Source: Minisyncoccota bacterium (GTDB lineage: Bacteria > Patescibacteriota > Minisyncoccia > Phycocordibacterales > UBA1550). From it: a DNA stretch of 64,000 nt. Each line of letters begins with the position of its first letter. Position 1 is the first letter of the stretch. The notes under the pieces are model-generated. The model searched no databases. It saw only the letters and a program-made list of their open reading frames with translations, and had not been told where the DNA came from. The stretch covers positions 523-64,522 of the forward strand of contig JBAZWZ010000001.1 of assembly GCA_041660105.1 (NCBI GenBank), written 5' to 3'. Both the position numbers and the translations under genes were made by a program. This document shows positions 47 through 58,455 of this stretch, one piece after another.

Positions 47-113
47 CTAGTGCAAAGCAAAAAAACCGCAGCGGTTGGCGTTACGTCCAAGATATGAATT
101 TGGTAATTTATGA

Positions 114-650
114 TTATTTGGGGTTACATTGCATCACACAATTTACTAAAGAATGGTTCCATTTTTCTTTGCTATGTACCTATTTGACCGATAGTATAAA
201 ATAGGTACATAGTGGAAGTTGGGCGAGTATATGGTTGCGGATTTTTGGGGTTACATTGCATCACACAATTTACCAAAGAATGGTGGCGGTCCCCTTTTCT
301 TGAGGAGTAAACAACATACACTTAATATATGCTATAGCATATATTAAGTGTATGTCGGGGAATTAAGAGTTGGACGTTGGATGAGTTTGGAGCTGGGGAT
401 TTTTAGGGTTACATTGCATCACACAATTTACGAAAGAATGGTGTCCCATTTTCACCTTCTGTTATCAATTTCCGCTATCTACTTATACGATACTATAGTA
501 CTGTATAAGTAGATAGTAGTATATATAACACTTTTAGGCGAATGAACGGCTGAAGATTTTTGGGGTTACATTGCATCACACAATTTACGAAAGAATGGTG
601 GCTGGCGCGGGGGCCTCTATTTTATACTCTTTATCAAAAAAGAATTGCTT
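114..650. repeat. Tandem array of 4 direct repeats, each followed by a unique palindrome-containing variable segment; not a canonical CRISPR
   Basis: Conserved core (ATTTTT)GGGGTTACATTGCATCACACAATTTAC[T/C/G]AAAGAATGGTG at 120-157, 247-284, 405-442, 562-599. Each core is followed by a degenerate gTCCcaTTTTCtt tail. Periods are 127, 158 and 157 bp. The variable segments each hold a different near-perfect palindrome: tgtacctattt..aaataggtaca, catacacttaatatatgctatagcatatattaagtgtatg, ctacttatacgatactatagtactgtataagtag. Confidence 0.8.
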
Positions 651-8093: not shown

Positions 8094-8825
8094 TTATATC
8101 CCCGAGAGTCCAAAGAGCCTACCGATGCCATACGTAATGACCATCGCGAGGATTCCACCTGCGACGACGCGGACGGTGGCGGTGCGCTTTGATGCGCCTC
8201 CTGCATGGGCGCTCAGACTGCCCGTGATAATAAGGGCAATAAGCACTGATATGAAGGTCGCCGTGACGCGCCAAGACTCAGGAGGAAGGGTGATGGCAAG
8301 AAGCGGAATAAGTGAGCCCGCAGTAAACGATGCTGCAGATGCGTACGCCGCGTGAAGTGGGTTGGTAAGGAAGTTGGGATTGATATGAAGCTCCACATCA
8401 ACGTGTGCTGCAAATGCGTCATGAGCGGTGAGCTCGATAGCAACGCGCTTTGCGGTATCCCGCGAGACGCCCTTACTCTCGTAAATACCAACTAATTCCT
8501 CGAGTTCGCTCTCGGGAACGGTATCAAGCTCGTGACGTTCCTTGGCGAGAAGTGCTTTCTCGGTATCGCGCTGAGTACTCACGGACACGTATTCCCCCAC
8601 TGCCATCGAGAGTGCCCCTGCGGTGAGTCCTGCGACTCCGGTAATAAGGATGACGTTTGAAGAGGCAGCAGCACCCGCAACCCCGAGAACAAGTGATGCG
8701 GTTGAAACGATGCCGTCGTTTGCGCCGAGGACGGCTGCGCGGAGTGCGTTGAGCTCGGTGTGTTTCTTTACTGATTGTTGGATAGGACTCATCCCCATAA
8801 GTATACCATCAAAAATACAAAACAA
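8094..8825 (-). CDS. VIT1/CCC1 family iron/manganese transporter
   Basis: 243 aa; SVKKHTELNALRAAVLGANDGIVSTASLVLGVAGA is typical of the VIT family, with multiple TM segments. Confidence 0.7.
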   Translation of the reverse strand: MFCIFDGILMGMSPIQQSVKKHTELNALRAAVLGANDGIVSTASLVLGVAGAAASSNVILITGVAGLTAGALSMAVGEYVSVSTQRDTEKALLAKERHELDTVPESELEELVGIYESKGVSRDTAKRVAIELTAHDAFAAHVDVELHINPNFLTNPLHAAYASAASFTAGSLIPLLAITLPPESWRVTATFISVLIALIITGSLSAHAGGASKRTATVRVVAGGILAMVITYGIGRLFGLSGI

Positions 8826-8874
8826 AGGGCGGTCCTTTTTTGCAAAAAAGGACCGCCCTTTGTTTTGTATTTTT
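8812..8874. terminator. 63-bp perfect palindrome / bidirectional terminator
   Basis: aaaatacaaaacaaagggcggtccttttttgcaaaaaaggaccgccctttgttttgtatttt. Confidence 0.6.
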
Positions 8875-25201: not shown

Positions 25202-25438
25202 ATGGACGAAGATGAAGATGATGTAGTAGTGGTGAGGGATAGTAACGGTACCATCTTGAGTAAGGGCGACACGGTGGTTGTCATTAAAGATTTGAAGGTT
25301 AAGGGTAGCTCCTCGGTAGTAAAAAGAGGAACCAAGGTTAAAAACATTTCACTTGAAGATGACGGCGAGCATGTATCAGGTAGTGGTGACGGTGTGAAAG
25401 GTATCGCACTCAAGGCTGAATTCTTGAAGAAAGCGTAA
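25202..25438 (+). CDS. PhnA/YjdC-like C-terminal domain protein
   Basis: 78 aa; DSNGTILSKGDTVVVIKDLKVKGSSSVVKRGTKVKNI..GVKGIALKAEFLKKA closely matches the PhnA C-terminal domain. Confidence 0.7.
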   Translation: MDEDEDDVVVVRDSNGTILSKGDTVVVIKDLKVKGSSSVVKRGTKVKNISLEDDGEHVSGSGDGVKGIALKAEFLKKA

Positions 25439-25443
25439 AAATA

Positions 25444-25497
25444 CAAAAGCCCCACCGAGCACCAGTAATGGTGCTCGGTGGGGCTTTTGTGTTTTTG
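25444..25497. terminator. Bidirectional rho-independent terminator (shared-core family)
   Basis: gccccaccgagcaccagtaatggtgctcggtggggc followed by ttttgtgttttt. The core CCGAGCACCAGTA[A/C]TGGTGCTCGG recurs at 35228-35257. Confidence 0.8.
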
Positions 25498-33900: not shown

Positions 33901-35215
33901 CCATAATAGCCCCCACGAGCCCTGCAGGCAAACCCTCTTCGTCAACAAACACTGCTTTACTGAAATGCACATCGTGCACGTTCTTGTCATAACCTTTAAC
34001 TTGAGAATCATATTCCTGCACACCACCACTCTTAAAAAGTTCATCGTCTTTTGCGTTATAAACAATCGCAAGCTCTGGCGGATTGATATCAAAAACCGTT
34101 TTCCCAATAAGTTTGTCTTTTGTAGCACCAAAGAAATTCTCGTATGCCTTATTGAAGCCGAGGTATCGCCCCACTCTATCTTTATAAAAGACAGGTACAG
34201 GGATAGCGTTGAGGAGCGTGGTGAGAAATGTATCATTCTCGCGTAATTTTTCCTCTGCCAGCTGGCGTCTGACAATATCTTGCTGGAGGGCAAACGACAT
34301 GTCTGAAAGTTTTTCATATGGCTCTTGAATCAAGACTATAAAAATCCCTTCATAAAGAAAGATGAATGCAGCAAACCTAAAAAGATGAGCGAGTACATTA
34401 AGCGTGTCGTATTGTGTAAACAAAAGGAACAGGAGAACATTGCTCATGAGAAGGAGAGTAAACGCAGCAAGATAGAGAAGATAAACTCTATTTTTTTCAT
34501 TTAGGTACATCCTCAGATACATAACATACGCAAGAATGAGCAATACTACAACAACCCCCTCAAGAACAAACGCGAGGGTTGTTGCACCCGTCCCATCAAT
34601 AAAGATAACGGGAAGTGAACTCTCAAAAAAAGTTACCCCGAGAATTACTGAGCTTGCGATAAGAAATGGGGCCGAAAATACAACTATTTTCCATAACCTG
34701 AACTTAGCGGGAATTCGTGAAATAAATGTACTAAGAAGGAAAGCAGCCAAAAAAAGAAGCTGTCCCATTATCCAAAATATAAGGGTTTTATTATTTGTAC
34801 TTGGCGTAATAAACATCGGCATTCCAGGGAACCCGAGGATATCCATCATATCAAGCATCCCGAAACCAATGAATGAGCTCGTTAAGAAAAAAAGATGTTC
34901 ATCACGGGAATGGAGATAGTGGAATACGCCAACCATAAAAATCGCGAATGAAATAACAATGGTAACAAGCTCAATGAAATCATGAAACAAGAGGTATGAA
35001 GCAGAACTAAAAACTATATAAAATTGTTCACTGAAAAACCATGCAATGAGTATGATCGCTAGGGGAACGAGCAAAGTTGCCACGAGAAACTGAACTGGTG
35101 AGGTAAGCTTCTTTGTTTCTTCTGGCGCTGTTTTGATTGGGGGCATATAGGTACTAAAAATAATATACCTATATTCTACTATTTTTATGAATATAATGAA
35201 ACAAGTAACGTGCAA
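30968..35215 (-). CDS. Multi-domain sensor histidine kinase (N-terminal polytopic membrane domain, multiple PAS/GAF, HisKA, HATPase_c)
   Basis: 1415 aa; H-box LASHQLRTPLS, N/G boxes (NAINYSP, GTGLGLYIAKMVAIKLGG), several PAS-like repeats. No response regulator adjacent. Confidence 0.85.
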   Translation of the reverse strand: MHVTCFIIFIKIVEYRYIIFSTYMPPIKTAPEETKKLTSPVQFLVATLLVPLAIILIAWFFSEQFYIVFSSASYLLFHDFIELVTIVISFAIFMVGVFHYLHSRDEHLFFLTSSFIGFGMLDMMDILGFPGMPMFITPSTNNKTLIFWIMGQLLFLAAFLLSTFISRIPAKFRLWKIVVFSAPFLIASSVILGVTFFESSLPVIFIDGTGATTLAFVLEGVVVVLLILAYVMYLRMYLNEKNRVYLLYLAAFTLLLMSNVLLFLLFTQYDTLNVLAHLFRFAAFIFLYEGIFIVLIQEPYEKLSDMSFALQQDIVRRQLAEEKLRENDTFLTTLLNAIPVPVFYKDRVGRYLGFNKAYENFFGATKDKLIGKTVFDINPPELAIVYNAKDDELFKSGGVQEYDSQVKGYDKNVHDVHFSKAVFVDEEGLPAGLVGAIMDITESKQTEKVCREAEENLRNIIEESPVATIVDTVEDGIERVLIMNKKFTELFGYTIEDIPDVEHWWAAAYPNEEDRQIARDKFAQGIAEATNGKTKSAPPETSVTCKDGTIRYVRVALSSLENRNVVTFEDLTDRIISEEEHKANTRFMESMDRVNKVIIKSDDLDKMMSDVLDEVLRIFDCDRAWLITPCDPWTLSYKVPMERTKPEYPGASSFGIEVPVDPDTTVLFQTTRAHDGPVVFNSQSNPPLPPELTTHFQVQSQLVMEIHPRVAASWMVGMHQCSYERVWTTEEKRLFQEVGRRIADALGILLAYHELQKSEEKYSRIIETANEGIWMLDQGRKFTFVNKRILDVLGYESKEMLLHDLLEFIDTSEHADEERQYEERRQGKSAIYERKFLHKNGGVVVCSISAVPVFSKEKEFMGSYGMVTDITERKRAEDELKEQQEHSQSLLRFSRDLEQARTYGDALQAAQKEIQDVMGYTNVWAYRLDEDKKYAHSIVATGSTAGMVMSEDVSATLKIEGDPMLEAIANAKEIVIVEDAQTDPNVNREIVEKMKNRTLVNVPVVLFDRNLGSIGMGTFGDEGVKVPSKSEQEYLVAMASHIAVAFDRIRLLEDRKKTEEELRENERELLEAQRIGHFGSFDWDSRTDVAVWSEEFYHIYGIDPSEKALPLAEYLQLYTPESSALMKRSVENIIKTGESYSLDLEFVRPDGVRKWVNIRGEAKYDEAHNFIGVQGTAQDVTRAKEVEKMRSDFLSLASHQLRTPLSGTKWLIETLEKKIPGPLTKKQKEYLDDIYKINERMTRLVSDMLAALRIESTETAFERNPIELPELYADLMLGVEAAAKSKQIVISEHFSKHPVPVVESNMNFLGIVLGTLFSNAINYSPECTEIIFDVVEEDNSVAFVVQDFGIGIPEDEQSRVFDRFFRAVNAKMMRPEGTGLGLYIAKMVAIKLGGSITFTSSKQGTTFMLHIPKSK

Positions 35216-35223
35216 AATTAAAC

Positions 35224-35263
35224 AAAAGAGCCGAGCACCAGTACTGGTGCTCGGCTCTTTTAC
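35224..35263. terminator. Bidirectional terminator (shared-core family)
   Basis: gagccgagcaccagtactggtgctcggctc flanked by aaaa and ttttac. Confidence 0.75.
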
Positions 35264-35281
35264 TTAATTTCGCACCACCCC

Positions 35282-36983: not shown

Positions 36984-37430
36984 TTAATTGTTATCCACAG
37001 CCTCCTTCTTCTCCTCTAAGTCGAGACAAACAGAATTCATGCAATACCTCTGCCCTGTCGCTGTCGGACCATCGTTAAAGAGGTGCCCGAGATGCGAGCC
37101 ACAACGAGCACATTGTACCTCGGTACGCAACATCCCACCGCTCATATCTTCGACAAGCCTCACTGCCCCAGGGAGCGCATCTGAATCAGCAGGTTCACGT
37201 CTTGGACGCAAAAAAGATGGCCACCCTGTCCCCGAGTCAAACTTCGCATCAGATGCAAAGAGCGGATTGCCGCACGCTACACATCGATAGACCCCCTCGC
37301 GATCATCGTGCAGAAGCTTGCCTGAGAACGGCGCCTCAGTCCCCTTCTCGCGCAAAACGTGATATGCCTCAGGTGAAAGTTTCTTCTTCAGCTCTTCATC
37401 GTCCATTGACGGGGAGAAATCATCTTGCAT
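36984..37430 (-). CDS. msrB: Peptide-methionine (R)-S-oxide reductase
   Basis: [24 protein letters not shown] Zn-binding and catalytic motifs. Confidence 0.9.
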
Positions 37431-38308: not shown

Positions 38309-38863
38309 TTAGATTTTGAAATGCTTTTTAATACTACCTACGTCCTCTACTTCCTTCGCGGTTATGATGCGAATATACTTGCGTACATCAAAACACTCAC
38401 CCGCAAAATCAATAACATCTGCACAAGGAAATGGGGTGATGAACACTGACTTCTGGTACTGGAGACACCCAAGTTTTTGAATAGCGTGTCCAATAGCGCG
38501 TCGCGCAAACTTCTTATCCTCAGGAATATCAAACATAACAATTCTCCACAAGCCATCCCACTTTTTTTGACGCATGATAGTCATCGACTTTAGCTTACTG
38601 CGCATTGCGCGCTCTTTGCCTGCTGCTGTTAAGACATAGTACTCTACTCCCTGCATCTTTCTTTTCCCTAAGTAGCCACGCTTCTCGAGTCGATCAGCCG
38701 ATCTCCGAATCCTCCACTGTTCTTGTGATGACTTTGGTCCAAAATATTTAAAGAGCTGAACTGCATTTGGCATCGTGACAGCGACCGCAAGCACCCCCAC
38801 CACCAAAAGTGTTGAAAGTAATATCTCAACAACATCTTCCTTTGTTGTATCTTTGAGTGCCAT
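38309..38863 (-). CDS. PaaX-family-like winged-helix regulator with N-terminal TM anchor and Cas2-like C-terminal domain
   Basis: 184 aa. N-terminal TM (VVEILLSTLLVVGVLAVAV), wHTH-like LEKRGYLGKRKMQGVEYYVLTAAG, then WDGLWRIVMFDIPEDKKFARRAIGHAIQKLGCLQYQKSVFITP, which matches the PaaX C-terminal (Cas2-like) signature. Confidence 0.5.
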   Translation of the reverse strand: MALKDTTKEDVVEILLSTLLVVGVLAVAVTMPNAVQLFKYFGPKSSQEQWRIRRSADRLEKRGYLGKRKMQGVEYYVLTAAGKERAMRSKLKSMTIMRQKKWDGLWRIVMFDIPEDKKFARRAIGHAIQKLGCLQYQKSVFITPFPCADVIDFAGECFDVRKYIRIITAKEVEDVGSIKKHFKI

Positions 38864-38892: not shown

Positions 38893-38974
38893 TGCATCTG
38901 TTACATTACTTGCATCTGTTACATTAAGAATAGCATAATTTCCAATTTGGTACTATAGTACCAAATTGGAAATT
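38893..38974. promoter_or_regulatory. Upstream region of the PaaX-like gene: direct repeat TGCATCTGTTACATTA x2 plus a 38-bp perfect palindrome (copy B)
   Basis: tgcatctgttacatta at 38893-38908 and 38914-38929. aatttccaatttggtactatagtaccaaattggaaatt at 38937-38974. Confidence 0.6.
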
Positions 38975-39086
38975 ATGGAAATAAGGGAACAAGAAAGGAG
39001 AACAGAGTGGTGTGGTGGGCGGGGAAATACCCTTGCGCATTTTTTACAATAAAGAAAACTCTGCACAAGCAGAGTTTTCCTTTGTC

Positions 39087-51491: not shown

Positions 51492-51727
51492 ATGGTCCGC
51501 GGTCACGAGTTACTAAGTGTGCTCAGGTGAGTACACCCTGCGCGCACTAAGTACTCTCGACCCCGCCTCACTGTCGCCTTGCGACATGCTCCCGATTTCT
51601 TACACGGTACTCCGAGTGTTGAAATCGCAGTGCCCTAGATTTATCGTGGCTTACGGCTTTCGAGTCTCCTCGCGGTTCGATTTTCTAATCGCCAGCGCAA
51701 GTGAAGCAGTTCACTTGCTTCGACCGC
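51484..51727 (-). pseudogene. tRNA-Asp-derived element: tRNA-Asp-like 5' and 3' ends flanking a ~170-nt non-tRNA insert
   Basis: Minus strand begins GCGGTCGaAGC (10 of 11 match to the tRNA-Asp 5' end) and ends GGACCATCGACCGC G CAAATACA (tRNA-Asp 3' end plus trailer). The interior has no D or anticodon arms. Confidence 0.5.
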
Positions 51728-51780
51728 GCAAATACAAAAAATCACGGCAATTGCCGTGATTTTTTGTATTTGCGCGGTCG
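51721..51780. terminator. Conserved-end hairpin 2 / terminator immediately 3' of tRNA-Asp
   Basis: On the minus strand the tRNA-Asp acceptor 3' strand runs into UCACGGCAA UUGCCGUGA followed by UUUUUUG. The distal arm regenerates GCGGUCG. Confidence 0.75.
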
Positions 51781-51846
51781 ATGGGACTCGAACCCACGAC
51801 CCCTCACGTGACAGGCGAGTGCTCTAACCAGCTGAGCTACGACCGC
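51773..51846 (-). tRNA. tRNA-Asp (anticodon GTC)
   Basis: GCGGTCG TA GCTC AGCTGGTTA GAGC A CTCGC CTGTCAC GTGAG GGGTC GTGGG TTCGAGT CCCAT CGACCGC G. Confidence 0.9.

Positions 51847-56361: not shown

Positions 56362-58455
<2,094 letters not shown>

Follow-up and report, generated by a model that had tools for sequence, protein, structure and literature searches.

The locus and its genes

The window, the 64-kb stretch of a Paceibacterota-like (CPR) chromosome that was analysed, begins with a tandem array of repeated elements, which is followed by a variable, low-GC defence island and then by nrdB and nrdA (Table 1). The island carries genes for a CPBP/Rce1-like protein, an AbrB/MazE-family protein, a ThsB-like TIR protein and PDC-M50A, and all island-side genes lie on the − strand; with nrdAB, a sigma factor and an ABC transporter, they make up the first 12 kb. 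The first 2 kb of the window have a GC content of 37%, compared with 44–53% elsewhere. PADLOC reports a candidate two-gene system, PDC-M50, composed of PDC-M50A and the ThsB-like TIR protein as component B. This pair, as well as the pair formed by the AbrB-family and CPBP genes, are possible defence or toxin–antitoxin modules.

The array reaches into the last island gene. Its fourth copy holds the CPBP stop codon, in agreement with the first-pass annotation, and the last ~13 CPBP codons are read from unit-derived sequence, a hairpin remnant now coding for the C-terminal residues ..DKEYKIE... At the opposite end of the island, ~125–165 nt past the nrdB stop codon are conserved in the window and in the related contigs L007–L010, L015, L016 and L018. 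This flank contains a long imperfect hairpin, whose sequence differs by lineage and which has no Rfam match in the window.

Table 1. Positions of the array, island and nrdB-flank features in the window
Positions	Strand	Feature	Remarks
64–76	−	Intrinsic terminator, AACCGCTGCGGTT + TTTTTGC	Array end on the island-gene strand
86–111		Degenerate mini-palindromic copy (CGTCCAAGA..TGAAT..ATTCA)	Flanks copy 1; orthologous to the MAG unit flank
112–170	−	Unit 1	Box 112–157; T-rich/A-rich tail 158–170
172–212		Hairpin 1	14-bp stem, 13-nt loop with GATAG
213–238	−	Linker 1	C-rich, G-poor; C12/G2 on − strand
239–302	−	Unit 2	Box 239–284 and tail
314–355		Hairpin 2	Perfect 42-nt palindrome, 21/21 bp, apex GCTATAGC
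356–396	−	Linker 2	C19/G3 on − strand
397–455	−	Unit 3	Box 397–442 and tail; 55/57 identical to MAG unit
475–516		Hairpin 3	21-bp arms, 90% complementary, apex ACTATAGT
517–554	−	Linker 3	C8/G5 on − strand
555–616	−	Unit 4	Box 555–599 and tail; CPBP stop codon 585–587
617–638		Fourth-hairpin remnant	18/22 inverted match to 183–204 (hairpin 1 loop region)
585–1454	−	CPBP/Rce1-like (MmRce1-type) gene	Family profile ends at residue 276/289
639–2713	−	Variable low-GC defence island	37% GC
1457–1705	−	AbrB/MazE-family gene	
1858–2295	−	ThsB-like TIR gene	PDC-M50B match
2306–2698	−	PDC-M50A gene	True start about 2698
2714–2840	−	Conserved nrdB 3′ flank	Ends in the left hotspot junction, directly after ..AACTACGCCTTG

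Anatomy of the array

The 64-kb window contains exactly four copies of the 26-mer GGGTTACATTGCATCACACAATTTAC, all on the + strand, at 121, 248, 406 and 563, and no others even with three mismatches allowed; zero matches are expected in shuffled sequence. The four conserved copies described in the first-pass annotation are therefore present. The 26-mer is the invariant part of a box of ~45–46 nt, the four copies of which span positions 112–599. A repeat finder delimits 73-nt copies starting at 86, 213, 371 and 528, with spacings of 127, 158 and 157 nt, so that the period of ~157 bp proposed earlier holds for the last two intervals but not for the first. The segments between the boxes contain three hairpins of 41–42 nt. 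A palindrome had been assigned to every copy, which is correct for copies 1–3, whereas copy 4 is followed only by the remnant of a fourth hairpin.

The unit had been drawn as a box with its own + strand palindrome. The natural unit is instead read on the − strand, from box to C-rich linker to hairpin. In full, the − strand order is an A-rich tail with a small stem, the box, an optional mini-palindromic element, the linker and the long hairpin.

Contig L003, a metagenome sequence of the same strain (99.9% identity), reaches 473 nt to the left of the window start, and this extension contains one small convergent gene and zero additional box copies, indicating that the array consists of exactly four units. 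The near-identical strain differs by one substitution within the copy-2 box. In look-ups made to extend the window leftward, Logan contigs stop at or near the array, and contig look-ups found no database record for the window's own NrdB. Three contigs (L002, L008 and L009) end at a unit, which suggests that arrays are under-assembled.

A 28–60-nt mini-palindromic element (CGTCCAAGACGTGAAYCTGCTGATTCAG and longer forms) adjoins the box in some units. Copies lie in the window at 86–111, 37181–37208 (MsrB gene) and 58363–58422 (N-terminal region of a − strand gene), and in relatives at L004 10095–10125 and 11707–11745 (SDR gene) and L016 5258–5317. Inside unrelated protein genes the element stands in frame, in either orientation, and adds 5–8 extra residues (e.g. 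ESADSRPGRE) in loops, as judged against solved homologues. It resembles a small mobile or repeat element that coding sequences tolerate.

The unit borders a defence-gene hotspot between nrdB and SIMPL

To place the array among related genomes, relatives' contigs were fetched via NrdB homologues and then searched with a unit profile. Among 185,579 species-representative genomes, the box is found in one genome, a Paceibacterota MAG, at one site; in the collections searched, it occurs in this genome, one metagenome contig (the window's own locus) and five related contigs. A dispersed multi-copy intergenic repeat, which the first-pass annotation had set against its own reading, does not fit an element with one locus in the window and one occurrence in a single species-representative genome. 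We rate the element as a lineage-restricted, uncharacterised conserved non-coding element or small-RNA module.

The module is present once, at the same border, at five loci (the MAG locus L004/L006, L008, L009, L016 and L017), with an additional partial second copy in L016, and only a truncated copy is left in L007. The comparison of copy number proposed earlier thus gives four copies in the L003 strain and one at the related loci, apart from the partial second copy. The module is absent from the more distant relatives L011/L012, L015 and L018, the NrdB proteins of which are 88–90% identical. L007 has the same NrdB protein as the MAG and has lost the box, the hairpin and a zinc-ribbon gene; because it has lost the box, the module is dispensable. 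Judged from these sequences, a lineage-specific and apparently non-coding module, normally single in a small Paceibacterota clade, has been multiplied four-fold in tandem to give the array.

The MAG locus is syntenic with the window, nrdA and nrdB being 86–88% identical at the DNA level. Its island is non-homologous and low in GC, and encodes an N6/N4 methyltransferase and a DGQHR/DndB-like protein. Within the window, the MAG unit is most similar to copy 1 and the left flank of that copy (87% over 92 nt), which identifies unit 1 as its ortholog by flank similarity, and homology between window and MAG ends again past the unit. The cargo at the other loci consists of a methyltransferase and an EcoO109I-like endonuclease (L009), an Mrr-like protein and small genes (L016), HATPase_c_3 (L007), or small genes of no assigned family (L008 and L017). 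Past the unit, L016, L017 and the MAG share a conserved stretch, a small zinc-ribbon gene on the opposite strand, SIMPL and SDR. Since the cargo varies and the flanks are constant, the locus is a defence-gene hotspot between nrdB and SIMPL, with the unit inside it. The unit is a conserved element at the distal border of this defence-island hotspot downstream of nrdB, a feature missed by the first-pass annotation.

The junctions are tight on both sides. Cargo genes lie 0–25 nt from the unit, which often supplies their stop codon, and three alleles that differ in cargo (the window, L007 and L009/L010) have the left junction at the identical nucleotide, after ..AACTACGCCTTG. A second box or hairpin was not found at the nrdB side of the islands, and a comparison of the nrdB flank with the unit for att-like direct repeats gave only 8–9-nt A-rich matches, with no co-variation between lineages. 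Exact-pattern scans of viral contigs returned zero matches for the box and the hairpin arms, an exact-pattern scan for the 28-nt flank likewise returned zero, and a BLAST search with the array turned up no genuine match in phage or plasmid collections.

Two further stretches at related loci deserve description. In L016 (4655–4760 and 5883–5946), a partial unit ending in GTAAATTG is fused to a 64-nt duplicate of the SIMPL-promoter region (89%), which appears to drive a 134-aa cargo gene. In L009 (7144–8187) and L010 (4273–5144), ~1 kb without a called gene extends from nrdB to the methyltransferase/EcoO109I-like pair, and could be a non-coding component or contain an uncalled small gene.

Conservation and composition of the box

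In the four window boxes and the MAG box, 26 + 10 positions are identical, while the adjoining linkers are nearly saturated with changes. The box has therefore been subject to purifying selection or gene conversion confined to it. Boxes are of two types, one with ..TTTCGTAAATTGTGTGATGCAATGTAACCCCAAAAATCC (window and MAG) and the other with ..GTAAATTGTGTGGTG(C/T)AATTTCTCATTTT(C/T)AAAATCC (L008, L009, L016 and L017). Box type is uncoupled from nrdB relatedness: the NrdB of L008 is 99% identical to that of the window, yet its box is of the other type.

Folding of the units had been proposed as a check in the first-pass annotation. The box alone is no more stable than its shuffles, and RNAalifold on eight aligned units gives no consensus fold, no conserved stem and no covariation in the box. 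We therefore reject a structured-RNA box; the result fits a promoter/operator or an unpaired RNA segment. An Rfam scan, likewise proposed, assigned the element to no family, giving only sub-threshold miRNA-like hairpin matches at E ≤ 10 and only tRNAs at gathering score (window and L004). In a trans-target duplex-energy scan of the 64-kb window, shuffled boxes did as well or better.

Coding in any of the six frames is also rejected, because starts, lengths and frames are inconsistent among the units; the earlier statement that no small ORF is conserved thus stands. An apparent conservation of the peptide C-terminus ..PFFRKLCDAM-stop vanishes because of 1–2-nt indels in the tail, so conservation is at the nucleotide level. 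A six-frame protein query of the box against 5.8 billion predicted proteins returned only a spurious opposite-strand ORF on the MAG contig. An interrupted inverted repeat, TAAATTG-N7-YAATKT, is present in all box variants; an equivalent repeat arises in 23–49% of shuffles, so that recombinase- or operator-like symmetry of the box does not exceed chance.

Hairpins, linkers and strand signals

The long hairpins can be aligned with one another and with the hairpin of the related genome, and have a common apex, C(T/G)ATAG. Fifteen of 19 pairs are changed on both sides and 95.7% of cells are paired, compared with 27–45% in slid controls. The hairpins are thus homologous, with pairing maintained through compensatory stem changes. 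The earlier description of a different palindrome in every unit holds for the sequences, but the palindromes are not unrelated.

The linkers have no common sequence. Their totals on the island-gene (−) strand are C119/G37. The resulting skew, −0.53 compared with +0.08 for the background, was reached by 0 of 20,000 random pieces. This C-rich, G-poor bias is a single-strand signature.

Terminator-like signals lie on the same strand. In L016, a hairpin of 19 bp followed by TTGTTTTGCC stands after the box on the − strand, L009 has a shorter U-tract hairpin in the corresponding place, and the MAG hairpin is terminator-like with a U-tract, also on the − strand. In the window, the − strand terminator at 76–64 follows copy 1, and hairpins 1–3 have a U-tract on neither strand. 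Evidence from G·U versus A·C pairs on the strand of the hairpin is contradictory.

A sigma-70 promoter scan of the array gave fewer matches than shuffles. Sigma-70-like matches in the box are weak, with a spacing of 16 in one box type versus 18–19 in the other, and the sole promoter-like matches reported by the scanner are on the opposite (+) strand, in the L009-type box only (TTGAAA-16-CACAAT). The tail and stem of the unit have a paralogous counterpart immediately upstream of the SIMPL promoter, the tail being 64% identical to it over 33 nt, and the alignment sets the box (C/A)AAAAT opposite the TATAAT of that promoter. In the same genomes, the SIMPL promoter is far more variable than the box.

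Other palindromes occur in these genomes. At L017 5586–5722, a hairpin has perfect 21-bp basal arms (AATTTAGCAATAGTACGCTAT and ATAGCGTACTATTGCTAAATT) and a hairpin-forming insert of ~80 nt exactly at its apex, between CTAT and ATAG. The window has further long perfect or near-perfect palindromes at 8811–8874, 25437–25496, 35210–35275 and 51720–51781, which are bidirectional-terminator-like, with 28–33-nt arms that include A and T runs; given these, long perfect hairpins seem to be a house style of the genome rather than specific to the array. A perfect 44-bp palindrome at 38934–38977 has the apex GTACTATAGTAC, the same as in the array hairpins. Beside it (38893–38977) are two direct repeats TTGCATCTGTTACATTA, which have GTTACAT and TTGCATC in common with the box, and the whole lies upstream of a PaaX/Cas2-like regulator gene (38309–38863, − strand). 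The resemblance to the array may reflect a shared operator family or coincidence.

A proposed RNA-level module on the − strand

The first-pass annotation had offered small RNAs, recombination or binding sites and decayed cassettes. Of these, we favour a strand-specific module acting at the RNA level, with recombination as the main rival, and a simple decayed cassette array is unsupported. Specifically, our best reading, which we put forward tentatively, is a − strand small non-coding transcription unit or 3′ RNA module that would have been amplified four-fold here.

The module would act at the RNA level, on the − strand, in one of two ways. The box could be a promoter or operator from which a short C-rich RNA extends as far as the hairpin; alternatively, the whole unit could be a common 3′-UTR/terminator RNA module for any upstream defence operon. 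In the window, the four units would be transcribed serially, with a stop at the canonical terminator at 76–64, and the 21-bp perfect stems would be processing or termination points. We infer transcription, its strand and a possible regulatory role from the single-strand bias of the linkers, the covarying hairpin stems, the terminators on the same strand and the tail's paralogy to sequence upstream of the SIMPL promoter, and further from the selection on the box, its lack of structure and the presence of the same module beside unrelated cargo. Counted against an RNA module are the missing U-tracts of window hairpins 1–3, the weak promoter matches and the absence of a target in the window. Against a promoter role in particular, 45 nt invariant at nearly every base exceed what an ordinary promoter needs.

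Alternative explanations

The main rival treats the box and hairpin as DNA or ssDNA recombination sites, a landing pad for integrase-less defence cassettes resembling integron attI/attC or dif/IMEX, with the four copies as footprints of successive events. The hotspot itself argues for such sites, as the unit lies amid a hypervariable region with different cargo in every genome, box type does not track nrdB relatedness, and both junctions are as precise as described above, stop codons included. In addition, partial units exist in L016 (ending GTAAATTG) and in the MAG/L007, and two hairpins are broken at or near the apex, one by the 80-nt insert in L017 and one as the window remnant at 617–638. 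However, no recombinase or transposase gene was found among the genes checked near any locus, the nrdB side of the islands has neither a second box nor a second hairpin, and the inverted repeat of the box is at chance level. Moreover, no RYYYAAC/GTTRRRY pair frames the hairpins, the MAG unit lacks a GC-skew switch, genome compaction could suffice for tight junctions, and a double-stranded site leaves the G-depleted linkers unexplained. We regard a landing pad as unlikely. A narrower version, integron-like gene capture in CPR bacteria with a remote integrase, would add defence cassettes at a specific site lying between the box/hairpin and the nrdB flank, possibly the apex of an ssDNA hairpin, so that the array records successive captures; we consider this very unlikely.

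Alternatively, the array could be functionless, consisting of right-hand flanks orphaned by serial island replacement with DNA from diverged relatives, or produced by unequal crossing-over, so that only the single ancestral module has a function. The relatives do have single units, the divergence among copies is that expected of orthologs from different lineages, copy 1 alone keeps the MAG-like flank, the near-identical strain has its substitution in the copy-2 box, and the loss in L007 points to a dispensable module. Against this, the four boxes are identical over 26 + 10 nt beside saturated flanks and three hairpins are 90–100% paired, which implies continued selection or gene conversion on every copy. 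A functionless array is quite unlikely.

A gene for a + strand small RNA in each unit, antisense to the island, is a third alternative. The box would then be the unpaired RNA body, and the small stem with its T-run (the 'gTCCcaTTTTCtt tail') an intrinsic terminator convergent with nrdB, which would reduce the hotspot to a mere gap between two convergent terminators. A T-rich run does follow the box directly in most copies and relatives (not in L017), the stem before it covaries in L008 and L007 (GAACTGT/ACAGTTC and AATGGTGAC/GTCACCATT), the scanner calls the L008 stem a terminator, and cargo that ends exactly at the tail is accounted for. The stems are nevertheless weak: those of the window copies and the MAG do not exceed shuffles in stability, and RNAalifold finds no conserved one. 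The + strand promoter-like match of the L009-type box would give an RNA of only ~30 nt and is missing from the window-type box, it is the opposite strand that has the strong terminators, and the 64-kb window yielded no target. We consider a + strand small RNA highly doubtful.

An array of small bacteriocin-like peptides beside a CPBP immunity-type protease, read in the + frame (M)GLHCITQFTKEW.. or, in relatives, MRNYTTQFTKQ, is barely credible and largely refuted already. In its favour, both variable sites of the window box are synonymous in that frame, a 3-nt indel separates the box types and the L009-type ATG has GGGA 8 nt upstream (read by eye). Against it, copies 3 and 4 lack a start codon, lengths run from 11 to >37 aa with unrelated tails, between-type substitutions fall mostly at codon positions 1–2, the MAG unit adjoins a DGQHR gene rather than CPBP, and the 5.8 billion predicted proteins hold no such protein bar the one spurious opposite-strand ORF.

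Significance of the element

CPR/Patescibacteria have tiny genomes and few recognisable mobile elements. To our knowledge, almost no non-coding RNAs have been characterised in them, and little is known about how they acquire and exchange phage-defence genes. The element is a sequence landmark for an exchange hotspot between nrdB and SIMPL, which has unusually precise junctions and a different cargo in each strain examined. As an RNA, the module would be a candidate regulator or insulator common to whichever defence operon arrives there, whereas a recombination site would point to a new mechanism of gene capture. The module is found in a few tiny groundwater (CPR) bacteria.

Comparison with known systems

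The element fails the testable defining features of CRISPR, attC, dif, ToxI and REP/BIME. As in CRISPR, invariant repeats alternate with variable segments beside defence genes. Unlike in CRISPR, the repeat is 46–60 nt long and present in only four copies, relatives have a single copy, and the 'spacers' are 80–112 nt long, mutually homologous and self-complementary, whereas CRISPR spacers are ~26–72 nt long, unrelated and uniform. No cas genes are found in the first 12 kb, and the sole Cas2-like match is the PaaX-type regulator, 38 kb away. The first-pass annotation was thus right to call the array non-CRISPR, on account of the lack of adjacent cas genes, the homologous hairpins between repeats and the single units of relatives.

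Integron attC sites and CALIN likewise have hairpins conserved in structure and not in sequence in a hypervariable locus, and place an element at the 3′ end of co-oriented, packed accessory genes with stop codons inside it. In contrast to attC, the element has no R″/R′ boxes, no extrahelical bases and no IntI, its stems are perfect or 90% complementary, it follows only the last island gene, and it has an extra invariant, non-palindromic box. GTTRRRY-like strings are present in two linkers, with no RYYYAAC partner (read from the sequence); units are missing both from the TIR–AbrB gap and from the nrdB end, and no integrase domain was found among the neighbouring genes in the window and at the relatives' loci.

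The dif/IMEX systems and the pdif modules of Acinetobacter plasmids resemble the element in that repeated short conserved sites border integrase-less islands and form arrays with short modules between the sites. A dif site is 28–31 bp long, with two inverted arms that bind the recombinase on either side of a 6–8-bp centre. In the element, no significant dyad symmetry was seen, the skew does not switch, near-identical strains have different sites and the other side of the island has none. A dif or terminus role is not supported, since in the 20-kb MAG locus the GC skew on either side of the unit stays near zero or slightly positive.

ToxI of type III toxin–antitoxin systems also consists of tandem non-coding direct repeats with a terminator beside an abortive-infection-type gene. 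Here, however, the period is 127–158 nt versus ~36 nt (repeats of ~34–40 nt), conservation is limited to the box, the gene precedes the repeats rather than following them, the cargo elsewhere is unrelated, and there is no ToxN-like gene. REP/BIME (RIP) elements share hairpins that alternate with a conserved linker at operon 3′ ends and between convergent genes, but they are dispersed in hundreds of copies, whereas the element is found at one locus.

Tandem small-RNA gene arrays are known from Listeria (LhrC1–4), Pseudomonas (PrrF1/2) and Vibrio (Qrr). In contrast to these, the invariant part here lies upstream of a non-conserved body, the module is normally single-copy, three of the four hairpins lack a U-tract, and no target was found in the 64-kb window. 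Like them, the array consists of short, intergenic, apparently non-coding units arranged head to tail, each with a conserved segment, an unpaired C-rich stretch and a hairpin.
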